64,000 nt of DNA from NCBI GenBank assembly GCA_023484085.1, contig JAMDAS010000001.1, positions 1 to 64,000 of the forward strand. Direction: 5' to 3'. Below, in pieces: positions 14,525 to 58,821 of this stretch (the stretch's first letter is position 1; every line of letters begins with the position of its first letter). The position numbers were made by a program, and so were the translations under genes. Under the pieces are notes generated by a model, which made no database searches, was not told where the DNA came from, and saw only the letters and a list, made by a program, of their open reading frames with translations. The stretch is from Candidatus Omnitrophota bacterium. Lineage in GTDB: Bacteria; Ratteibacteria; UBA8468; B48-G9; DTJG01.

Positions 14525-15490
14525 TTATATTGCCATTGATTTCAATAATTCCAATTTTTCCATGGAAATTGTCTTTTTACCGGAAATCACGTCAGAAAGT
14601 TTTACCCTTACAATCTTATTGCCGCTAATCCCCACCATTTTACCATAATCCTTTTCCTTGAACATTTTTATTGCCTCAAAACCAAAAATTGTTGCAAGCT
14701 CTCTTGAAAAATAAGTGGGAGAGCCTCCTCTCTGGGAATACCCCAGGACAACGTATCTCACTTCCCTGTCAGGTAAATTCTGATGGATTTTTTCTGTAAT
14801 ATCATGCGCTTTTCCAGCTCCTTCAGCAAGAATAATAAGAGAACTTAGTTTTCCTTTTTGTTTATTTTCTTCAAGGTCTTTGATGATTTTTTCCATTGAA
14901 ACAGGAAATTCAGGAATAATGGCTGTTTCTGCACCTGCTGCGATTGCAATATCAAGAGCAAGAAAACCATGTTCTCTTCCCATAACCTCAATAATAAAAA
15001 CCCTCTCATGGCTGCTTGCCGTATCCCTTATTTTATCTATTATTTCTACGGCAGTGTTTACAGCCGTATCAAAACCAATTGTCCAGTCTGTTCCAAAAAC
15101 ATCATTGTCAATAGAAGCAGGAATAAACACAACAGGAAAACCAAAATCTACGGATAAAGCGTATGCACCATTTGCAGAACCATCTCCGCCTATAGCAACA
15201 AGTCCTTCTATACCAAGCTCCTGTAAGTTTTTATAACATTTTTCTCTTGTCTGCTTTTCTTTAAATTCAGGAAATCTGATGGTCCGCAGGATGGTGCCGC
15301 CTTTATTTATAATATTGCCTACGCTTCTTGAATCCATATTTATAACGTCTTTTTCAAACAATCCATAATATCCTCTTTTTATTCCAGATACTTCAAAATC
15401 CGCCCCGAGCCCGGCTCTTACAACAGACCTGATAGCGCAGTTCATTCCAGGAGCATCCCCGCCACTTGTAAGAACGGCTATTCTTTTCAA
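14525..15490 (-). CDS. pfkA: ATP-dependent 6-phosphofructokinase
   Basis: [17 protein letters not shown]…, IGGDGS motif (Gly at the ATP/PPi-discriminating position), PASIDND. Confidence 0.8.
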
Positions 15491-15859: not shown

Positions 15860-17521
15860 ATGAGTAAACTACAACAAAAACATAGAAACACAGAAACTTT
15901 GATGATTAGAGATTCTTATCAGCAATATTTATTCCCGGATATGCCTTTAATAACATCAAAACGAGAGTTCTTACATAAAGCAAGAAGCAAAACAAGTCTG
16001 GGATTACAATGCGAGAAAATAAATATTCTCATAAACAAAATTGGATTTGAGAATGCGTGGTATTCAATTTTAGCCACACATATCTATCAACTTCATCAAT
16101 CCCCCTTTGATTATCTTTTAAAACAACAAGAGTTTGCGAATGCAGTTATTTTGGATTCAGATATACTTTATTATCTTTCTATTGGTGAAATAGCAACACT
16201 TTATGAGTATTCTTTGTCGTATCTTAATAGAAATAAAAGAGCTCAGGAAGGACAGTATTTTACGCCTGATGATGTGGCTCAAGTAATGGCAAAAAGATCG
16301 CTCTTTTTCCCCCCTGATAAAATTTGGGTTGACCCTTGTTCAGGAATTGGTAATCTTTCCTTTTGGTTGATTAAGTTACAGAGTAATCCTGAGAGTTTTT
16401 TAACTAATCAACTTTATTTGATTGACAAGGATGCACTAGCATTGTTTATTGCCAGAACTTTATTCACACTATCATTTCAAAATAAATCAAAAAATTTATT
16501 TATTGAAATAGCACCTCGTTTTATAGTTGCAGATTTCCTTTTTGCTTCCGAACTTCCGGCATTTGATTTTGCTATTCTAAATCCACCCTATGTAGAAGTG
16601 GAATCTGATAATCGTTTTAAAACTGCTAAAACACGTAATTTGTATGCTTATTTTTTGGAACGAGTTATTAATCTATCAAGGGGATTTGTTTCTATTACAC
16701 CACAAACTTTCACGCACGGACAGAGATTTAAGACTTTACGCCAATTACTAATTGAAAATATGAAGGATATTTCAATTTATTGTTTTGATAATGTTCCTGA
16801 TACGATATTCAAAGGAATTAAATTTGGCTCAACCAATACAAATAAAACCAACAGCATAAGGGCGTCCATCACCGTAGCAAAATCTGAAAGTAAATTTCCT
16901 TGTTTTAAAATTACACCCTTGTTGCGATGGCGAACAAAAGAAAGAAAAAAAATACTGGAGAGTATTGATGATTATTTGACCAATGTAGAACCAAGCGTGG
17001 ATATTTTCCCCAAAATTCAAAAGGAACTTCTGTATTTATATTATGAAGTAAAAAAGGTGAAAAAAACATTGGTAAATCTTGTTTCAACCAATCCAACACA
17101 ATATAAACTCGTCATCCCAACCACGCCCAGATATTTTATTTCTGCACTGCGAACAGAAGTTAATCGTTCTTCATTCAGAATATTATATTTTTATAATAAA
17201 AAAGACTACGACCTTGCCTATATTTTATTAAATAGCAGTTATGCTTACTGGTGGTGGCGGATTAATGATGGTGGAATGACGATTTCAGAAAAAACTTTGC
17301 TTTCATTACCAATTCCAGATAACATTCCTGTTAACAGTCAACTTATATCAAAGATTGAACAATCAGAACTCACAAACCGAGTTTTCAAAAAAAATGCAGG
17401 TAAAAACAATGAGAATGTAAAACATAAAGCAATTCTTATAGGAGAAATAAATCAAACTCTTTTTCTTGATTTCGCTTCTGCACTTAACCATCTACATAAT
17501 AATTCGGTTATTACTATATGA
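15860..17521 (+). CDS. N6-adenine-specific DNA methyltransferase (gamma-class, HsdM/Eco57I-like catalytic domain + C-terminal putative target-recognition region)
   Basis: Motif X GQYFTP, motif I VDPCSGIGNLSF, motif IV FAILNPPYVEV in gamma-class order; 553 aa. One of only three plus-strand genes in the window. Confidence 0.65.
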   Translation: MSKLQQKHRNTETLMIRDSYQQYLFPDMPLITSKREFLHKARSKTSLGLQCEKINILINKIGFENAWYSILATHIYQLHQSPFDYLLKQQEFANAVILDSDILYYLSIGEIATLYEYSLSYLNRNKRAQEGQYFTPDDVAQVMAKRSLFFPPDKIWVDPCSGIGNLSFWLIKLQSNPESFLTNQLYLIDKDALALFIARTLFTLSFQNKSKNLFIEIAPRFIVADFLFASELPAFDFAILNPPYVEVESDNRFKTAKTRNLYAYFLERVINLSRGFVSITPQTFTHGQRFKTLRQLLIENMKDISIYCFDNVPDTIFKGIKFGSTNTNKTNSIRASITVAKSESKFPCFKITPLLRWRTKERKKILESIDDYLTNVEPSVDIFPKIQKELLYLYYEVKKVKKTLVNLVSTNPTQYKLVIPTTPRYFISALRTEVNRSSFRILYFYNKKDYDLAYILLNSSYAYWWWRINDGGMTISEKTLLSLPIPDNIPVNSQLISKIEQSELTNRVFKKNAGKNNENVKHKAILIGEINQTLFLDFASALNHLHNNSVITI

Positions 17522-19422: not shown

Positions 19423-20442
19423 CTATTTAAAAAATATTTTTGTAAGCTCAAACCAGTCTTTGTCTACTGTTTTTAGTTTTGCCACAGCCTCTTTCAGCTC
19501 AACCGCCTCTATCTTATTACCTCTCAGGCAAGCCATTTTACCGAAGTCCCCGTTATTCACAAGTTCTGCGGCTTTAACTCCAACCCTGAGCCCCAAAATC
19601 CTGTCAAATACCGTAGGAGCGCCACCTCTTTGCATATGCCCCATTACAGAAGACCTTGTTTCAATTCCGGTATTTTTTTCTATCATCTTTGCAATTTTTT
19701 CGTCTGTTCCTCTTTTTGTAACCGTGATATGTCCAAACTCATCCGTTACCTGTGTTGATGTATCTTCCGGGATATCAATGCCCTCAGATATAATAACAAG
19801 TCCGTAATTTTTTCTTTTATAAACCTCTTTCAGGTGCTGATACATTTTATCATAATCATTTTTAAATTCAGGAAGTATACACCAGTCAGCGCCGGATGCA
19901 AGAAACGTATAAGCGGCAATCCAGCCTGCATGTCTTCCCATAACCTCAAGGACCATTATCCTCCTGTGAGACTTTCCCGTATCCATTAATGCCCTGCATG
20001 CGTCAATATTCCGTGTTACTGCAGTATCAAAACCAAACGTAAAATCTGTCGCGTAAAGGTCATTGTCAATTGTTTTAGGCACCCCTACCACTTTTATTCC
20101 CTGCTCATAAATTTTTGCTGCAACTCCAAGTGTATCCTCGCCACCCATTGCAACAATTGCATCAACGTTATATTTCTCCATATTCCTCTTTATTTTTTCA
20201 ATGCCATCATCTCTTTTTGCAAGATTAAACCTTGACGTCCCGATGATTGTTCCACCCTTGTAAACAATCTCATCCACTTCTTTCAATCCCATTGGAACAG
20301 TATTACCTTCATAAAGACCCTTCCATCCTTCCAAAAAACCAATACATTCATTTCCAAAATCCATACTTCTTATAACACAACCCCTGATAGCAGGGTTTAA
20401 TCCCGGGCAATCCCCTCCACCTGTTAACATCCCGATTCTCAT
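19423..20442 (-). CDS. pfp: Pyrophosphate-dependent phosphofructokinase (group III PFK, PPi-type residues)
   Basis: MRIGMLTGGGDCPGLN; GGEDT (Asp at the position that is Gly in ATP-PFKs) and PKTIDND (Lys where ATP-PFKs have Gly); start at ATG 20440-20442 with GGAGGG SD. Confidence 0.65.
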   Translation of the reverse strand: MRIGMLTGGGDCPGLNPAIRGCVIRSMDFGNECIGFLEGWKGLYEGNTVPMGLKEVDEIVYKGGTIIGTSRFNLAKRDDGIEKIKRNMEKYNVDAIVAMGGEDTLGVAAKIYEQGIKVVGVPKTIDNDLYATDFTFGFDTAVTRNIDACRALMDTGKSHRRIMVLEVMGRHAGWIAAYTFLASGADWCILPEFKNDYDKMYQHLKEVYKRKNYGLVIISEGIDIPEDTSTQVTDEFGHITVTKRGTDEKIAKMIEKNTGIETRSSVMGHMQRGGAPTVFDRILGLRVGVKAAELVNNGDFGKMACLRGNKIEAVELKEAVAKLKTVDKDWFELTKIFFK

Positions 20443-20461
20443 AATTCCCTCCACTCCCCCT

Positions 20462-49940: not shown

Positions 49941-51275
49941 CTAAAAATCTGTTCGCCATCCAACGGTAAGCCTGCTATAGTCAAGACCGCCTATCTCCGG
50001 ATTGGTTGATTTTCCCACGGATAATTCACCCATAATAACCGATGTTGGCGTAATAAAATAGTCAACGCCGTAAGTTACAGTCTTATAGGTACTATAATAT
50101 CCATCAAAACCAGGATTACCCTCAATACCATCAACAGCAGAAAATCCGCCCGGTAAATCCTTTGCATAGGAATATTGTACAAGACTCTGCCATTTTGGAT
50201 TAAACCTGTAAAGACTTTCAATATAATAGGCATCCGTTTTAGCGTCTATCGTACCGGATACTGCACCAGGTACACTATCCCATTTGCCTCCTATCTCTTC
50301 ACCTTTCAAAGTCCATTTGGCATAATTCAAAACAAGCCCAAGTTCATCCCTTGAAAAATTATGGCTGCTGGTATTATCCCACTTACCTGCAAGATAAGAA
50401 CCCTCAAATTTCACCTGGCTATTACCGGACAGAAAAATATTTGGAGCAACATGGACCATGACTGCCTTTGACTGGTCAGTTCCAACATCGCTGCTGTTGA
50501 TAAAATTACTTAACAGATAAAAATATACAGGTATACCCCAGTTTCCTACATAATAGTGTTTATCAAGTTCCACTCCAGCAGCATGTAATGGTAGAACCCG
50601 GCACATTCCTGGCGGAAGATGATAAAGCTGTGTCCAGAAAATTCCTCTCGCGTACTCCTCAGAAAACTCTGGTGTTAATGCACCTGCTTTCAGGTCCCAT
50701 TCATGCGGTAATGATGCATCCACATACGCTTTCCATAAAGTGAATTTGTATCCGCTCATTGACCGGGTTATTCCTGGCGTTACATTCGGTGTAGCTAATG
50801 TAACAGCCTTTATCCAGGGGTCTACTTCTATACTAAGATTTGGTGTAATCTGCTTATGCATAAAAAGCCATAGCATACTAACTCCCGCACTTGGATTATT
50901 GGACTGGTTCGCCCCATCTTCCGTTCCCCATGACTGGTCAAAAAGATACAGCTTCAGGTGGCCATGAATGGTTAACGCTTTGCTCGCTTCTTCTTGTTGT
51001 TGTTTTTCTTGTTTGACGGATCTTTTTCGTAGATATTTAATACGTCTCAATGCTCTTGCTGTCCGTCTTGACTGGGTGGTTTGATTTTTCTCCAATTGGG
51101 TTACCTGTTTTTGTAATGTATTAAGCACTGATTGCAGTTGCTCAATCTTTTTTTGCAGTTTTGCAACCTGTTTACCGTTACCTGGATCCTGAGCCGCCCT
51201 GGCAGAAACGACTGTCAGCATTAACCCAGCCGCCATACATACTAAAATTAATTTCTTATACAGCATTTTTTTCAC
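49941..51275 (-). CDS. Outer-membrane beta-barrel (porin-like) protein with N-terminal coiled coil
   Basis: Signal peptide (MKKMLYKKLILVCMAAGLMLTVVSARAA), coiled-coil segment, alternating amphipathic strands, C-terminal …GWRTDF terminal-Phe OMP signature; strong AGGAGG SD. Confidence 0.55.
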   Translation of the reverse strand: MKKMLYKKLILVCMAAGLMLTVVSARAAQDPGNGKQVAKLQKKIEQLQSVLNTLQKQVTQLEKNQTTQSRRTARALRRIKYLRKRSVKQEKQQQEEASKALTIHGHLKLYLFDQSWGTEDGANQSNNPSAGVSMLWLFMHKQITPNLSIEVDPWIKAVTLATPNVTPGITRSMSGYKFTLWKAYVDASLPHEWDLKAGALTPEFSEEYARGIFWTQLYHLPPGMCRVLPLHAAGVELDKHYYVGNWGIPVYFYLLSNFINSSDVGTDQSKAVMVHVAPNIFLSGNSQVKFEGSYLAGKWDNTSSHNFSRDELGLVLNYAKWTLKGEEIGGKWDSVPGAVSGTIDAKTDAYYIESLYRFNPKWQSLVQYSYAKDLPGGFSAVDGIEGNPGFDGYYSTYKTVTYGVDYFITPTSVIMGELSVGKSTNPEIGGLDYSRLTVGWRTDF

Positions 51276-51498: not shown

Positions 51499-52356
51499 CT
51501 ATTTTATATAGCTGAAACTTAAAATAAATAAAGTGATCAGATAAACAGCAACAGACATGTTTATCACCGGAAGAAAATAATTTTTATTTTCATAATTTTT
51601 ATTCAGGGGGAATAAATTTTTCCAGAGCCATGGAATTATTGAAAACAGGATAACGGCAAACAACGGTATTTTTTTTAATACCAGCCCCAATCCAAGAAAT
51701 AAAAAAATAGAAATAAAACATATATTTATAATTCCGGTTATTTTTTGTTTCCCCATTTTTACCACTAAATTTCTTTTTCCTATCAGCTTATCCTGGTAGT
51801 AATCCGGAATCTCATTGAGAAGAGCCAAACAAAAAACAAATAGTCCGCAAATCAATGATGGCAATAATGGCTCTATGTTAATAGACTTTGTCTGGATATA
51901 ATAACTGCCATATACCATAAAAGGGCCATAAGATAATGCGATTACTGTCTCACCTAATCCCCGATATGCCCACCGTATAGGTGGACCCACATAAAAATAA
52001 GCCCCTAAAAATCCAAATAAAATAAAAAGAATAACAGGCCAGCCAACCTGAAAAGACAGGTAAATGCCGATAAAAGAGGCAAGCATAAAAACAAAAACAC
52101 CAAGCCGAAAAAAATAACGCGGAATCTCTTTCTTTTCAAGAGAAAATACACGGTCTCCTCCGGATTGAGAATCAAAATATTCATTAAACAACTCTACACC
52201 AACAAGCGTAAAAAAAATGCCCAGCAGGCCCAGCCAGAAGTAATTTTTAATTATCAGTCCTTTTGTATGGAAAGCTAATGATTGGCCTAAAAGATATGGA
52301 AGTAATCCCGCCCACAGGAAAAAACGGTATCTTATTAATGAAACAATTCTACCCAT
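51499..52356 (-). CDS. UbiA-superfamily membrane prenyltransferase, MenA-like Asp-rich motifs
   Basis: 285 aa, ~8 TM helices; first motif NEYFDSQSGGD (N[DE]YxDxxxGxD as in MenA), second motif NEIPDYYQD. 22-nt overlap with upstream radical SAM gene. Confidence 0.7.
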   Translation of the reverse strand: MGRIVSLIRYRFFLWAGLLPYLLGQSLAFHTKGLIIKNYFWLGLLGIFFTLVGVELFNEYFDSQSGGDRVFSLEKKEIPRYFFRLGVFVFMLASFIGIYLSFQVGWPVILFILFGFLGAYFYVGPPIRWAYRGLGETVIALSYGPFMVYGSYYIQTKSINIEPLLPSLICGLFVFCLALLNEIPDYYQDKLIGKRNLVVKMGKQKITGIINICFISIFLFLGLGLVLKKIPLFAVILFSIIPWLWKNLFPLNKNYENKNYFLPVINMSVAVYLITLFILSFSYIK

Positions 52357-53291
52357 TTATTTGATTCTGCCAAAAGTTTCGGCTCTTTGATAAGTCTGTC
52401 TATAAATTCCTGGACCTGGGGTTTCTGCCAGCTTATTTTGTAATTTTCCCACACCTGCTTTAATGTCTGTTTTTTCAAATTTCCGCAAACAAATGGCAGT
52501 GGTCCGATTAGTTTTACTTTTCCATTTGGTATTACAAGAAGACTGGCAGCAGGAGACATACGACGATATTTCAGTTCCTCTAAAACATCATAGGGATAGA
52601 AATAAACCTTCATTTTCCCATCATATTGTTTAAGTTTTTCATTTAAAGTGGTAAAAAACTCTTTATACTCTTCATCTGACGGGCAAAGTATGTCCCAATT
52701 TTGGGCTGCACGGCCAATCCTCATTATTTTCCCCGTATATATTCCATATACGCCAAGTGAATAGGCAAAATCTATTATCTGACCTATTTCATGGATGTTA
52801 AATTTAGTCGGTACAAACACAATCTCAGTATTGACACCTTTGGACTTCAATAATTTACAGGCATTCGTTGCCTTATTCCAGTTTCCACCCAATCTTAACT
52901 TCTCATGGGCAACCGACGTAGCACCGTCTAAACTTATCTGGACAGAACGAAGATTAAGCGAAGCAAATCGTTCTGCTTTTTTCTCATCAATATACTCACC
53001 ATTAGTTTCTATTTTAAGGTCTATTGAATTTTTTCTTAAGAATTCACACATTTCAAAAATATAAGGATGAAGTAATGGTTCGCCACCGGAAAAAGCTACG
53101 TATGGAATCTTTAGAGCAACAATCTGCTCTAAAACTTTAAAAGTTTCATCCCTTGATAACTTATCAGGCATACTATGTCCTGCCTCTTCACAGCAGTGCA
53201 GGCATCCAAGATTACATTCTGCATTTATCTGCCATGCAATAAATAATGGTGCCTCCAAATCATTAATATTTATTATATTGTTTTTATCCAT
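52335..53291 (-). CDS. Radical SAM enzyme (PqqE/AhbD/NirJ-like core) with Cys-poor SPASM-like C-terminal tail
   Basis: IAWQINAECNLGCLHC (CxxxCxxC); GGEPLL; C-terminal VIPNGKVKLIGPLPFVCGNLKKQTLKQVWEN matches SPASM terminal motif (…PCxx…GNxxxxSLxEIW) but only 2 downstream Cys. Confidence 0.75.
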   Translation of the reverse strand: MDKNNIININDLEAPLFIAWQINAECNLGCLHCCEEAGHSMPDKLSRDETFKVLEQIVALKIPYVAFSGGEPLLHPYIFEMCEFLRKNSIDLKIETNGEYIDEKKAERFASLNLRSVQISLDGATSVAHEKLRLGGNWNKATNACKLLKSKGVNTEIVFVPTKFNIHEIGQIIDFAYSLGVYGIYTGKIMRIGRAAQNWDILCPSDEEYKEFFTTLNEKLKQYDGKMKVYFYPYDVLEELKYRRMSPAASLLVIPNGKVKLIGPLPFVCGNLKKQTLKQVWENYKISWQKPQVQEFIDRLIKEPKLLAESNKWVELFH

Positions 53292-53604: not shown

Positions 53605-53666
53605 TACAGACACTAAGGCACAAAGGAAAAATTGAAATATCTTTAAACTCTGAGCCTTTGTGCCTT
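53605..53666 (-). other. 12-bp-stem hairpin (aaggcacaaagg / cctttgtgcctt) between precursor peptide gene and pqqD-like gene
   Basis: Perfect 12-bp inverted repeat with 38-nt loop; no U tract after it; related hairpin module also occurs in repeat R5. Confidence 0.4.
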
Positions 53667-53694: not shown

Positions 53695-53820
53695 TTATGT
53701 AAATCTGATATATGGCTGCGCCATTATTTTTTCTGAAACATCTTCTAATTCAGGCTTTTTCCATTCATGCTTTTGATTTTCCTGCTTTTGCATATTTTTC
53801 TTTTCAACAAATTTTTTCAT
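53695..53820 (-). CDS. Candidate precursor peptide (41 aa), PqqA-like core
   Basis: Not in ORF track (short). Perfect SD AGGAGG 5 nt upstream of ATG. Translation MKKFVEKKNMQKQENQKHEWKKPELEDVSEKIMAQPYIRFT. WKKP motif and W-to-Y spacing of 17 residues, same as PqqA (WKKPAF…EVTLY). First gene of the PqqD/rSAM/prenyltransferase operon. Confidence 0.55.
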   Translation of the reverse strand: MKKFVEKKNMQKQENQKHEWKKPELEDVSEKIMAQPYIRFT

Positions 53821-53933
53821 TTAATCCTCCTGTTATATTCAAAAAAATAAAAATTTATAAAGTTGATAAATCTACTAATATATATTTTATAACCATTTTT
53901 ATTTTTGTCAAAATTATTTCAGCCAGCCGGTTA

Positions 53934-54938
53934 CTACTTACATTTTGGTAAATTATTACGATTAAATCCAAGATTTGCAACCCATACATTCCCAGCAGAA
54001 TCTATTGCTATACCAACAGGGTTACTTACCACATCGTATGTTCCAATAGTTTTTCCACCGGGGCCAAGCTTTGTTACACCTTTACTCCCATAATTTGCAA
54101 CCCATACATTCCCGGTAGAATCTATCGCTATACCCCCGGGAAAACTTCCCACAGGATAAATCCCAATAGTTTTTCCACTAAAACTTAGTTTTGTTACATT
54201 ATCACTCCCCTCATTTGTAACCCATACATTTCCATGAGGGTTTATCGCTATACCAATTGGACCGCTTCCCACATGATAAATCCCGATAGTTTTTCCACTA
54301 AAACTTAGTTTTGTTACATTATTACTTCCCTCATTTACAACCCATACATTTCCATGAGGGTCTACTGCTATACCAATTGGACCGCTTCCCACAGGGTATG
54401 TCCCGATAGTTTTTCCACTAAAACTTAGTTTTGTTACATTATTACTGCGCCAATTGGCAACCCATACATTTCCATGATGGTCTATCGCTATACCATCAGG
54501 TCCTTTTCCCACAGGATATGTTCCTATAGTTTTTCCACTGGAATTTAGTTTGGTTACATTATTACTTACAGGATTTGCAATCCACACATTTCCAGCAGAA
54601 TCTATCGCTATACCCCAAGGTCCTTTTCCCACAGGATATGTTCCAATAGACTTTCCAGTTGAACTAAGCTTTGTTACATTATTACTTCCAAGGTTTGTAA
54701 TCCATACATTTCCAGTAGAATCTATTGCTATACCAATAGGTCCTTTTCCCACAGGATATGTTCCAATAGACTTTCCAGTTGAACTAAGCTTTGTTATACT
54801 GTTATTTCCAGCATTTGCAACCTGTACTTTTCCAGTAGAAGCCCAAACAATGGAATTAATAAAAAATAAATACAGAATTGCTCCATAGAAGACCAAAAAT
54901 TTTAATAATCTTTTACTCATAAGTTCCTCTTTTTTCAT
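53934..54938 (-). CDS. Secreted NHL/YVTN-type beta-propeller repeat protein
   Basis: Signal/anchor N-terminus, then eight ~40-aa tandem repeats (…NNVTKLSxSGKTIGTYPVGxGPxGIAIDxxGNVWVxN…); underlying DNA is a ~120-bp tandem array. Confidence 0.65.
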   Translation of the reverse strand: MKKEELMSKRLLKFLVFYGAILYLFFINSIVWASTGKVQVANAGNNSITKLSSTGKSIGTYPVGKGPIGIAIDSTGNVWITNLGSNNVTKLSSTGKSIGTYPVGKGPWGIAIDSAGNVWIANPVSNNVTKLNSSGKTIGTYPVGKGPDGIAIDHHGNVWVANWRSNNVTKLSFSGKTIGTYPVGSGPIGIAVDPHGNVWVVNEGSNNVTKLSFSGKTIGIYHVGSGPIGIAINPHGNVWVTNEGSDNVTKLSFSGKTIGIYPVGSFPGGIAIDSTGNVWVANYGSKGVTKLGPGGKTIGTYDVVSNPVGIAIDSAGNVWVANLGFNRNNLPKCK

Positions 54939-56775: not shown

Positions 56776-58821
56776 TTAATGATGTATTATTATAAACAGG
56801 TTGGAAAACACAAGCGTAAGAGTTGCCAATAATTTTATAAGAATATGCAAAGAAGGACCTGCCGTATCCTTAAACGGGTCCCCCACTGTGTCTCCAACAA
56901 CTGCTGCTTTATGCGCATTGGAACTCTTATCTCCAAACTCCACTTTTTCAATATATTTCTTTGCATTATCCCAGGAACCGCCTCCATTGTTCAACGACAG
57001 GGCGAGCATAACACCAGCAATTGTTCCCACCATTAAAGTAGCCCCCACAGATTCTGTTCCAAGGAAAAAACCCACTGCTATAGGAACAATTATCGCTATT
57101 AAGCCGGGAAGAATCATTTCTTTTAAAGCCCCACGGGTACATATATCTACAGTTTCTGCATAGTCTGGTTTTTCTGTTCCTTTCATAATTCCAGGATTTT
57201 CCCTGAACTGTTTTTTTGCATCATTAATGATATAATAGGCTGCACGGCCCACTGCCCTGATAGCAAGTGAAGCAAATACAAAAACAAGGCCGGCACCTAA
57301 AAAACCGCCTACAAAAACTATTGGTTTGCCAAGATTAATGACTTTTAAATGAGCTGATTCCATATATGCTGAAAAAAGTAAAAATGCAGCAAGAGCAGCT
57401 GAACCAACTGCATATCCTTTGGTTAAAGCCTTTGTGGTATTCCCAACTGCATCAAACCGGTCTATTTTTTTTCTTATTTCTTTTGGAGAATGAGACATCG
57501 CCACAATTCCACCCGCATTATCAGCAATGGGTCCAAACGTATCCATTGCAAGAATAAATGCACATGGTGAAAGCATTCCCATGGTTGCTACTGCCGTACC
57601 ATAAAGTCCGCCATTTTGAAGTCCTGTAGCTTTTCCAAGATAATAAGAAAGAAATAAAGCAATTAATATTACAAATACAGACAGTCCCGTACTTTCCAGT
57701 CCTATGGAAAAACCTGTAATTATATTTGTTCCCACACCTACTTCAGAGCCCCTGACAATGTCTTTTACCGGCCTGTATTTATCTTCTGTATAATACTGGG
57801 TAATATGAACAAAAGCCTGGCTTGTTAATATGCCTATAAGACCTGCAAGAAAAAAATCAAACCAGTAATGTGTAAAAAACAGGTATGTTGCTATAGCAAA
57901 ACCAATTGTAGAAAGAATTGTTGTACAAAGATATCCTCTGTTAAGTCCATGCATCGGGTCTTCATCTTCATCAATCCTTACAGACATAATTCCTGCAATT
58001 GAAGCAAGAAGACCAAAAGAACAGGTTACCAGGGGAAAAAGTATACTATTCAAACCAAAAACCTGGTACAGCGGAATACCAAGAATCATAGCACCTATAT
58101 TTTCTGCAACTGTTGACTCAAAAAGGTCTGCACCACGGCCTGCACAGTCACCCACATTATCTCCCACAAGGTCAGCAATTACTGCCGGGTTCCGGGGGTC
58201 ATCTTCAGGAATACCCGCTTCAATCTTGCCTACAAGGTCTGCACCTACGTCAGCTGCCTTTGTATATATTCCTCCCCCCAATTGTGCAAAAAGAGCAACA
58301 AAAGATGCCCCAAATCCAAAACCTACTATCATCAAAGGAGTTATCTGCGGATTTGTAAATCCTCCAAAAAGAGAAAATATACCTGCAATACCAAGAAGAG
58401 AAAGAGAAACAACAAGGATTGCTGATACCGCGCCACCACGTAAACAAATTTTAAGGGCTCTATTTGTACTCCTGGTGATTGCCATAGCAGTTCTATCACC
58501 AGACCTCACAGAGATATACATACCAATAAAACCTGCTACAGAAGAACACAGCGCTCCAAGTATAAAAGCAAGGGCAGTATGCAATCCAAAAGAAAGTTCC
58601 CCGGTAACAGCATATATAAGAAGTATAACAACAGCAAAAATAAACGTTAATTTTGCAATTGTTCCATACTGCCTTTTCAGGAAAGCTATGGCACCTTCTT
58701 TTATTGCCACGGATATTTCCCTCATTTCAGGTGTCCCTTTTGCCTGTCTTGACACATATCCTGCAATAAGGGCTGCTGTCAATAAACCCACAAAACTTAC
58801 GGATATTATCCAGATAAACAT
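56776..58821 (-). CDS. hppA: Membrane-bound proton/sodium-translocating pyrophosphatase
   Basis: 681 aa, ~16 TM; conserved GGG…DNVGDCAGRGADLFES and …AVVGDTVGDPFKDTAGPSL motifs. Confidence 0.9.
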   Translation of the reverse strand: MFIWIISVSFVGLLTAALIAGYVSRQAKGTPEMREISVAIKEGAIAFLKRQYGTIAKLTFIFAVVILLIYAVTGELSFGLHTALAFILGALCSSVAGFIGMYISVRSGDRTAMAITRSTNRALKICLRGGAVSAILVVSLSLLGIAGIFSLFGGFTNPQITPLMIVGFGFGASFVALFAQLGGGIYTKAADVGADLVGKIEAGIPEDDPRNPAVIADLVGDNVGDCAGRGADLFESTVAENIGAMILGIPLYQVFGLNSILFPLVTCSFGLLASIAGIMSVRIDEDEDPMHGLNRGYLCTTILSTIGFAIATYLFFTHYWFDFFLAGLIGILTSQAFVHITQYYTEDKYRPVKDIVRGSEVGVGTNIITGFSIGLESTGLSVFVILIALFLSYYLGKATGLQNGGLYGTAVATMGMLSPCAFILAMDTFGPIADNAGGIVAMSHSPKEIRKKIDRFDAVGNTTKALTKGYAVGSAALAAFLLFSAYMESAHLKVINLGKPIVFVGGFLGAGLVFVFASLAIRAVGRAAYYIINDAKKQFRENPGIMKGTEKPDYAETVDICTRGALKEMILPGLIAIIVPIAVGFFLGTESVGATLMVGTIAGVMLALSLNNGGGSWDNAKKYIEKVEFGDKSSNAHKAAVVGDTVGDPFKDTAGPSLHILIKLLATLTLVFSNLFIIIHH

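Follow-up and report, generated by a model that had tools for sequence, protein, structure and literature searches.

A radical SAM enzyme of SPASM ancestry without auxiliary-cluster cysteines in a conserved peptide, PqqD and UbiA prenyltransferase cassette

Introduction

Positions 1 to 64,000 of contig JAMDAS010000001.1 from a Candidatus Omnitrophota bacterium (GenBank assembly GCA_023484085.1), the whole stretch of DNA analysed here and referred to as the window, carry four consecutive minus-strand genes that encode a precursor peptide, a PqqD-family protein, a radical S-adenosylmethionine (SAM) enzyme and a UbiA prenyltransferase, in this order (Table 1). To our knowledge, pyrroloquinoline quinone (PQQ) and mycofactocin are the only well-established cofactors derived from ribosomal peptides. 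Both were first seen as conserved cassettes of peptide, PqqD and radical SAM genes, and the cassette described here shares their hallmarks, with a peptide core that is even more invariant. An earlier note, made from the letters of this DNA alone, had singled out the radical SAM enzyme as one that lacks the cysteines for auxiliary iron-sulfur clusters. We find that the enzyme is very probably a functional, cluster-free SPASM derivative that belongs to a peptide-maturation cassette; the evidence for the cassette and for its function is comparative throughout.

Table 1 Features of the cassette in the window, with positions counted from its first letter, and recurrence of the gene order at other loci.
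Feature	Position	Strand	Evidence
UbiA-superfamily prenyltransferase, 285 aa, MenA/UBIAD1-like	51499..52356	-	Pfam UbiA PF01040, E 2.2e-23; overlaps radical SAM stop by 22 nt
Radical SAM enzyme of the SPASM/twitch lineage, without auxiliary-cluster Cys	52335..53291	-	318 aa; Pfam, NCBIfam, homologue alignments
SPASM remnant, residues 249-282: beta-hairpin and 'CGNL..Q.L..VW' helix, no ligand Cys	52446..52547	-	hhalign, MAFFT columns, AlphaFold strands/helix
Radical SAM cluster motif C26-x3-C30-x2-C33 and fourth Cys C34	53193..53216	-	100% kept in 120 homologues
PqqD-family peptide chaperone (RRE, RiPP recognition element), 83 aa	53331..53582	-	Pfam PqqD, E 8.7e-12
12-bp perfect hairpin in the 112-nt spacer between peptide gene and PqqD	53615..53666	-	Fold -26.4 kcal/mol, z -2.45; no T-run
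Precursor peptide gene, 41 aa, MKKFVEKKNMQKQENQKHEWKKPELEDVSEKIMAQPYIRFT followed by stop	53695..53820	-	Shine-Dalgarno, 47/47 loci, codon analysis
Shine-Dalgarno AGGAGG, 5-nt spacer (53821..53825) before the peptide ATG	53826..53831	-	
Putative promoter-like site TTGACA-16 nt-TAAAAT upstream of the peptide gene	53884..53911	-	Consensus match only: 11/12 consensus matches, best in 3-kb scan
PqqD immediately upstream of radical SAM enzyme			47/47 loci, tblastn
Peptide upstream of PqqD			47/47 loci, tblastn
UbiA immediately downstream of radical SAM enzyme			55/57 loci, tblastn

Results

The motif CNLGCLHC occupies residues 26-33 of the radical SAM enzyme, which has eight cysteines in total (C26, C30, C33, C34, C82, C145, C203 and C269). 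As the earlier note had stated, this canonical cluster motif is followed, past the radical SAM core, by only two cysteines, C203 (in ILCPSD) and C269 (in FVCGN). Pfam identifies Radical_SAM (PF04055, E 2.3e-23) and Fer4_12, and gives no match to SPASM (PF13186) at E<=0.01. C26, C30 and C33 are invariant in the family alignment together with S68-G-G-E-P72, E95-T-N-G98 and S120/D122-G123, which places the protein in the radical SAM superfamily. Membership of narrower families was judged by the curated model cutoffs of NCBIfam (release June 2026), and every model scored below its cutoff. The best was MftC (TIGR03962; 122.4 bits, cutoff 265, residues 11-283), followed by AhbD (TIGR04545; 118 bits, cutoff 500) and NirJ2, with the GeoRSP radical SAM model also among the best; PqqE (TIGR02109) reached 79.2 bits against a cutoff of 381. 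A twitch domain holds one auxiliary cluster with at least three cysteines, whereas the twitch-like domain here, which scores 63.5 bits with model NF033640 (cutoff 170), has a single broadly conserved one, C269. Source databases name the homologues 'radical SAM protein' or 'MoaA/NifB/PqqE/SkfB family'.

Profile-profile comparison of the C-terminal part matched residues 249-282 to canonical SPASM domains (hhalign probability 96.7%, E 4e-10), with no match beyond them. A MAFFT alignment of the family with the nearest canonical SPASM proteins from the representative search (13 canonical sequences) places the enzyme on the SPASM segment 'C.AG..c.I.p.G.v.PC....GN[IL]...L..IW', with P247/A248 in the column of the first SPASM cysteine and I262 in that of the GX4C cysteine. 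C269 stands one column before the GN motif and, because only 2 of the 13 canonical sequences have a cysteine there, is not a ligand position; in both the alignment and hhalign, neither C269 nor C203 occupies a SPASM ligand column. The CX2CX5CX3C...C half of SPASM has no counterpart, and helices take its place. The AlphaFold model (predicted local distance difference test, pLDDT, 87.5) consists of a partial barrel, a hairpin (250-253/258-260), a strand (267-271) and a helix (277-287), with two further helices where the cluster-binding helix region of SPASM would be. Its nearest structures in Foldseek are SkfB, PqqE (6c8v) and SuiB, in alignments that span 275-316 columns, and next come viperin, BlsE, DesII, MoaA and anSME (BlsE, DesII and viperin, with 7vob, 8hzy and 5vsl, among the top), all of the SPASM/twitch structural group. 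A hairpin and helix homologous to those of SPASM follow the partial TIM barrel, then, whereas the motif CX9-15GX4C...CX2CX5CX3C...C, whose seven cysteines bind two auxiliary clusters in SPASM enzymes (PF13186/TIGR04085), and the Pfam profile are absent. The degenerate SPASM domain proposed in the earlier note is thereby upheld, with a cysteine in none of the ligand columns. Its location needs correction: PLPFVCGNLKKQTLKQVWEN, described as a terminal SPASM signature at the C-terminal end of the protein, covers residues 264-283 with 35 more residues behind it, and corresponds instead to the central hairpin and the 'GN[IL]..L..IW' helix of the first (twitch) half. Judged by these alignments, the C-terminal domain is a SPASM derivative that has kept the fold of the first half and lost all seven ligand cysteines.

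A word-indexed search with the enzyme returned 700 homologues at E<1e-5, of which the best 120 were analysed. They are 65-100% identical to it and carry more than 12 phylum labels; Pfam annotates PF04055 in all, PF13353 in a few and SPASM PF13186 in none. The pattern CX2CX5CX3C was sought in all 120 and found in none, and 118 of them have three or fewer cysteines in the C-terminal part. The earlier note had staked its reading on this cysteine count beforehand, and the reading survives, given that homologues of the same architecture all lack the seven-cysteine motif. A 25-sequence alignment shows the SAM-binding motifs (GGEP, ETNG and SxDG) and about a hundred other positions to be invariant. 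The picture extends to more distant proteins: a HMMER scan of 1.84 billion representatives gave 133 clusters at E<1e-30, at most three C-terminal cysteines were present in 62 of the 86 single-domain proteins among the best 150, and the first canonical SPASM pattern appears in the list only at about 31% identity. That all seven ligand cysteines are absent could also mean a decayed, non-functional SPASM enzyme, which we regard as hardly credible: the loss cannot be called decay because it is conserved across the 120 homologues, the catalytic motifs are invariant, there are no canonical sister copies and the operon is kept. On this comparative evidence the enzyme is under strong purifying selection, with an intact SAM/[4Fe-4S] core.

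The surroundings of the enzyme were compared in 70 loci fetched from GTDB species genomes through its motifs, with genes counted only where the flank was long enough. Because naive open reading frame (ORF) calling in high-GC loci produced shadow ORFs, the architecture counts rest on tblastn. The gene order of the window proved to be nearly universal (Table 1), and the PqqD partner that the earlier note had postulated is present directly upstream at each of the loci counted. The loci are labelled Omnitrophota, Planctomycetota (Phycisphaerae, Sedimentisphaerales, Pirellulales and Brocadiaceae), Elusimicrobia, Lentisphaerae, Aminicenantia/Acidobacteriota, Calditrichaceae, WOR-3, Thermodesulfobacteriota, Nitrospirota, Nitrospinota, Armatimonadota, Hydrogenedentota and others; all are from metagenome-assembled genomes (MAGs), and a few of the phylum labels may be binning errors. 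More distant relatives without the cysteines (36-48% identity) revealed a second architecture, in which PqqD, rSAM-1, UbiA, rSAM-2, the peptide and rSAM-3 follow each other; it has three radical SAM paralogues, all without the auxiliary-cluster cysteines, and a peptide that ends in VMAQPYIRFT-stop. In a neighbour-joining tree the window-type enzymes form a clade of their own beside these three paralogues. A metagenome scan with the back-translated peptide core matched at least 120 contigs, many of them from soil, and among the 80 that were fetched, 60 have the order with three radical SAM genes, 17 have the window order and 3 are too short to tell. Contigs found by the peptide alone hence carry cassette genes in one of two fixed orders in 77 of 80 cases, and UbiA stands between the radical SAM paralogues in every contig of the three-enzyme type long enough to show its position. 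Among the matches listed, the three-enzyme architecture dominates soil metagenomes. An apparent radical SAM-UbiA-radical SAM fusion (P0148) was rejected as a frameshifted read-through of a high-GC operon, and the contigs of P0124 and P0127 are too short to inform on context.

The paralogues also bear on the possibility that an auxiliary cluster is still held by C34, C82 and C269 together with a non-cysteine residue, or by ligands from a partner protein. These three cysteines are conserved in 100%, 97% and 99% of the window-type family (best 120 homologues), and non-cysteine ligation of auxiliary clusters is known from PqqE. However, in the AlphaFold model they lie on three different elements (C34 in the SAM-cluster loop, C82 on the outer barrel helix 78-87 and C269 on the remnant strand 267-271), and there is no counterpart of the helix region in which four of the seven SPASM ligands lie. 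In addition, only the window type has C82, C145 and C203, which are not kept in the paralogues that accompany the same peptide; C34 recurs in paralogue r2 and in some r3 copies, and not in r1; and besides the SAM motif only the C269 column is broadly conserved across the paralogues. We hold such a cluster to be quite improbable. A hidden site built from other cysteines was rejected on the alignment, because no set of three or more extra cysteines able to hold a cluster is kept across the paralogues.

The peptide consists of a variable, Lys-rich N-terminus, a leader W-x-K-P-x-L-E-D-V-S and an invariant core MAQPYIRFT, with the consensus W-x-[KR]-P-x-L-E-D-V-S-x-x-[VI]-M-A-Q-P-Y-I-R-F-T. Even a loose pattern, P-[YFWH]-[IVL]-[RK]-[FYW]-[TS]-stop, picks out one small ORF in 60 loci, all ending in MAQPYIRFT-stop, and the same end is found in all 46 protein clusters retrieved with the peptide as query, every one of them named 'hypothetical protein'. 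Among 58 distinct DNA versions of the peptide, from loci fetched through the radical SAM enzyme, W(-22), P(-19), V(-14), S(-13) and the nine core residues are kept in 58 of 58 while each position uses 2-5 synonymous codons. Such synonymous variation with zero amino-acid change indicates purifying selection at the protein level, and not a conserved RNA element or recent transfer. The leader weakly matches the start of the lasso-peptide leader model (E 0.04-0.14), and the best NCBIfam matches of PqqD are the lasso-peptide PqqD chaperones (RRE) and WgkC, all below cutoff; these similarities fit leader recognition of the RRE type. With a PqqD/RRE protein adjoining the enzyme and a short precursor that has a conserved leader and core, the cassette has the make-up of an RRE-dependent system for a ribosomally synthesized and post-translationally modified peptide (RiPP).

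Two known systems come closest. The PQQ system (PqqA/PqqD/PqqE) likewise has a small precursor with a conserved Tyr, a PqqD chaperone and a radical SAM enzyme of SPASM lineage, and PqqE is among the best structural matches. However, PqqE has auxiliary clusters where the window enzyme has none, and the window cassette has UbiA instead of pqqB, pqqC and pqqF, none of which recurs in the compared loci; in the window, neither of the two ORFs beside the cassette has a match to a PQQ family. The peptide also departs from a PqqE substrate, with Met at Tyr-4 where PqqA has Glu. Klebsiella PqqA has the same W-K-K-P start at equal spacing to the Tyr, with its crosslinked Glu at the site that is Met here, and we take this as a lead only. 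Mycofactocin shares the combination of peptide, PqqD-type chaperone and radical SAM enzyme, a near-invariant C-terminal core and, in MftC, the top NCBIfam match. It differs in that MftC has auxiliary clusters, the mycofactocin precursor ends in ...GVY where the window peptide ends in ...FT, and prenylation is not part of the pathway; none of mftD, mftE and mftF stands beside the cassette in the compared loci, and the enzyme does not qualify as MftC. The precursor models of PqqA and mycofactocin in Pfam and NCBIfam do not match the peptide even at E<=10, and its membership of PqqA or MftA was rejected on this ground. More generally, no Pfam or NCBIfam model (June 2026) covers the peptide or reaches its cutoff on the radical SAM enzyme, PqqD or UbiA. 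Full-text literature gave no account of the peptide, of a cassette with PqqD and UbiA or of a prenylated peptide modified by a radical SAM enzyme, with most subscription journals outside its scope, so that an earlier description is possible. Hence, the cassette may be an undescribed member of the peptide/PqqD/radical SAM kind that makes cofactors, with a realistic chance of a categorically new product.

A variant of the cassette occurs in Thermoprotei MAGs (L081, 4607-6939; L082), where a peptide ending in ...EWEPPIIKDVTRPLMAQPYKTSTLLI, PqqD, a radical SAM enzyme without the cysteines and a small 288-aa SPASM radical SAM enzyme stand without UbiA. The variant peptide, MDTTNSKIKIEWEPPIIKDVTRPLMAQPYKTSTLLI, shares the leader and MAQPY and has a different tail. 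Because the peptide that lacks a UbiA keeps just these, the shared part is the leader plus M-A-Q-P-Y, and by this comparison the tail I-R-F-T-stop goes with UbiA, on the basis of one archaeal lineage. A search for more archaeal-type peptides, with a query padded by four residues, matched only itself.

UbiA resembles MenA and UBIAD1 in its fold family, in both Asp-rich motifs, in its best sequence matches and in the polyprenyl-diphosphate synthase next to it. The motifs, NEyFDxxxGgDR and NEiPDyyqDxLxGKrN, are kept in 57 orthologues with a median identity of 52%; in the PDB, sequence comparison matches human UBIAD1 alone (E 1.3e-9); and the synthase gene (Pfam E 3e-65) follows UbiA in 15 of the 44 loci with enough flank and precedes some three-enzyme clusters. 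In contrast to MenA, the window protein is operonic with peptide-maturation genes and lies far below the MenA cutoffs: MenA models are its best in NCBIfam, yet the top one gives 99.9 bits against a cutoff of 277 and all 9 fall short. A Pfam scan of 20 window ORFs (1446-29187) found no men, mqn or ubi genes, the other large ORFs not having been scanned directly. UbiA might nevertheless be the MenA of the organism, with the peptide, PqqD and radical SAM enzyme making a separate soluble product, such as a cofactor like PQQ or mycofactocin or another RiPP, so that two different pathways happen to share a location. Beyond the best models and the closest solved structure, the Thermoprotei module without any UbiA speaks for this, as do surveys of Omnitrophota that report prenyltransferases without a complete quinone pathway (PMC10066038). 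We nevertheless find it unlikely. UbiA follows the radical SAM gene at almost every locus and overlaps it in the window (Table 1), is inserted between two radical SAM paralogues in the second architecture, and co-occurs with the IRFT-stop tail that is replaced in the UbiA-less variant; the distance to the MenA cutoffs points the same way.

Several neighbours of the cassette belong to electron transport. Ferredoxin, a pyridine-nucleotide disulfide oxidoreductase (Pyr_redox_2) and H+-pyrophosphatase lie upstream in the window and in its closest relative (L001); ApbE, an FMN-binding protein, TatC and complex I lie downstream, complex I being read for the window from the closest relative. Elsewhere an Rnf operon accompanies the cassette in 7-16 of 65 loci, and Nqr genes occur as well. 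Near the three-enzyme clusters there are a NapC/NirT tetrahaem cytochrome (five loci, once overlapping PqqD by 4 nt) and an MtrA-like decahaem cytochrome with an MtrB/PioB porin.

Another set of neighbours suggests a prenylated peptide signal. Ribosomal peptides that receive an isoprenoid are known from ComX/ComQ and from cyanobactins, in which Tyr is prenylated by PagF-type enzymes, and ComQXPA likewise brings together a peptide, an isoprenyl enzyme, a kinase and a regulator. A histidine kinase of PilS type with six transmembrane helices and a response regulator each adjoin the cassette in 16 of 65 loci, beside the polyprenyl synthase already mentioned, and the pair could sense the product. 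However, ComQ and the PagF-type prenyltransferases have a soluble polyprenyl-synthase-like or ABBA fold, not that of a membrane UbiA, and they work with hypervariable peptides and no radical SAM enzyme. Pheromones diversify, whereas the core is identical over more than 12 phylum labels. A kinase is missing from most loci and, where present, might just as well respond to the redox state of a lipid carrier; among the loci compared there is no recurrent exporter or protease. A signal is therefore, in our judgement, an improbable product.

Relatives outside the peptide system are found in hem operons. P0125 (L203, 2178-3152), which is 44-47% identical to the window family, and P0132 (L204, 3299-4231), from an Actinomycetota MAG, are Cys-poor or Cys-less, and the operons run hemE-rSAM-hemH and hemE-hemH-rSAM-hemY. 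These haem relatives are 36-47% identical to the window enzyme, their best model is AhbD, far below its cutoff, and there is no PqqD or peptide in either operon. Could the window enzyme itself act on a tetrapyrrole, with the peptide and PqqD as accessories? The rank of AhbD and NirJ2 among the family models and the presence of relatives in hemE/hemH/hemY operons would agree with this. Yet the window family always has the PqqD and peptide that the hem-operon relatives lack; AhbD works on a tetrapyrrole with two auxiliary clusters and with neither PqqD nor a peptide; no haem genes recur beside loci of the window type, and the enzyme does not qualify as an AhbD; and UbiA is MenA-like, not like haem O synthase. 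We rate a tetrapyrrole substrate as very improbable.

The hem-operon proteins have a further implication. HemN/CgdH decarboxylates oxidatively with no auxiliary cluster. In characterised AhbD the SPASM domain carries two auxiliary [4Fe-4S] clusters (PMC10452713), and bacteria with the coproporphyrin pathway are known to have AhbD homologues (PMC13564367). P0125 and P0132 may be anaerobic coproheme decarboxylases that, unlike characterised AhbD, are free of auxiliary clusters, and if they do perform the AhbD reaction, the scaffold can decarboxylate oxidatively without them. Because such Cys-poor relatives may be oxidative decarboxylases, we do not take the cluster loss as a bar to oxidative crosslinking. 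The C-C crosslinking of PqqE type that the earlier note had doubted may, by this analogy, still be open to the enzyme, as the loss of auxiliary clusters would not exclude oxidative chemistry. BlsE, DesII and viperin, top structural matches of the same SPASM/twitch group, are precedents for a fold of this kind working with the radical SAM cluster only, although they act on nucleotide or sugar substrates, have no RRE partner and share sequence similarity limited to the core. Among distant relatives without the cysteines, P0146, P0174 and P0187 are fused to a C-terminal PqqD domain. These fusions show wide use of the cluster-free clade on peptide substrates. A PqqD-centred cluster of another kind (L205, 2002-5453) combines three radical SAM enzymes, of 275 aa, of 460 aa with SPASM, and the Cys-less P0140, with an adjacent MFS transporter.

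Interpretation

We propose that the cassette, guided by the RRE, modifies MAQPY by radical chemistry and then adds a polyprenyl chain, to yield a membrane-bound, peptide-derived redox cofactor, and from the sequence comparisons we put the probability of this composite reading at about 0.5. In such a pathway PqqD would bind the leader W-x-K-P-x-L-E-D-V-S and present the core to the radical SAM enzyme, which, with its radical SAM cluster alone, would abstract a hydrogen within M-A-Q-P-Y, the segment kept in the UbiA-less archaeal variant. The radical would have to be resolved without an auxiliary-cluster conduit, by return of a hydrogen atom from C34 or C269 as in an epimerase, by passage of the electron to the SAM cluster or by an external acceptor. 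UbiA would then attach a long polyprenyl chain to the modified peptide. Known enzymes of the UbiA superfamily prenylate aromatic carbons (MenA/UbiA) and make ethers (DGGGP synthase) and esters (chlorophyll synthase). The chain could therefore plausibly sit on the Tyr, at its ring or its oxygen, on the hydroxyl of the Thr or on the C-terminal carboxylate. The product would be anchored in the membrane and most likely work with the adjacent Rnf, Nqr or complex I, or with NapC/CymA and MtrAB, as their redox cofactor or electron carrier. We favour a membrane redox cofactor over an antibiotic or pheromone because the core is invariant across phyla and centred on a Tyr, and because the cassette lies in an electron-transport context; such constancy over many phyla is typical of cofactor precursors such as PqqA and MftA.

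Several points weigh against this proposal. The electron-transport neighbours are present in only about 10-25% of loci, and Rnf, the commonest of them, does not use quinones. Genes for a protease, a transporter or quinone tailoring do not recur in the cassette at the loci compared, for which reason the product may stay a full-length lipopeptide and not become a small cofactor. UbiA could act on a non-peptide substrate, and the chemistry is predicted at every step, from the residue that is modified to the site of prenylation and the final product. Finally, every source is a MAG or metagenome contig, with no cultured organism among them.

For two features of the cassette we found no described precedent, namely radical SAM maturases of SPASM ancestry that have no auxiliary clusters, and a membrane UbiA that is encoded in the operon and has a polyprenyl synthase of its own. 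A bolder and rather doubtful extension is that the product represents a third family of redox cofactors derived from ribosomal peptides, after PQQ and mycofactocin, and the first polyprenylated one, acting as a membrane carrier with Rnf, Nqr, complex I or CymA/Mtr in Omnitrophota, Planctomycetota (including the anammox Brocadiaceae), Elusimicrobiota, Acidobacteriota and many soil bacteria. If this were true, the product could be the missing quinone-like carrier in lineages with apparently incomplete quinone pathways. A lipid-anchored redox carrier would bear on membrane electron transport in many uncultured anaerobes and soil bacteria, and on the puzzle of incomplete quinone pathways in Omnitrophota (PMC10066038). 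In this phylum, a survey describes prenyltransferases but no source of an aromatic head group for them, and menaquinone pathways that are patchy (PMC10066038), gaps that are compatible with an undescribed carrier. For enzymology, the family is a natural experiment on the need for SPASM auxiliary clusters, with the same scaffold lacking them in enzymes that modify peptides and, apparently, in those of haem operons.

Other features of the window and its relatives

The 12-bp hairpin ahead of PqqD was considered as a conserved attenuator and rejected, given that it is not kept in other loci and that L001, the closest relative, has a 4-nt overlap of the peptide gene with PqqD; it only possibly belongs to the system. 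Between Pyr_redox_2 and the peptide gene, a minus-strand gene (53934..54938) encodes an NHL/Vgb-lyase-like beta-propeller with a signal-like N-terminus, and looks like a local insertion because it is absent there in L001, whose radical SAM enzyme is 87% identical. On the other side of the cassette, a minus-strand gene (49941..51275) encodes 444 aa with a signal peptide, a coiled coil at the N-terminus and a weak match to the phosphate porins (Porin_O_P); it is kept beside the cassette in L001, L002 and L006, in opposite orientation relative to the latter.

In the Rnf operons (RnfC, D, G, E and A) next to the cassette, a terminal membrane-anchored protein (L005, 4028-4993, with homologues in 16 of 65 loci of the window order) stands at the expected place of RnfB. 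It combines a plant-type 2Fe-2S ferredoxin (Fer2) domain with a NuoE-like 2Fe-2S domain of thioredoxin fold.

Elsewhere in the window, an Eco57I-like N6-adenine methylase (15860..17521, plus strand) sits amid minus-strand housekeeping genes, and there are two phosphofructokinase paralogues (14525..15490 and 19423..20454, minus strand) and the membrane H+-pyrophosphatase (56776..58821, minus strand). The methylase, phosphofructokinases and pyrophosphatase are ordinary context for an anaerobe.

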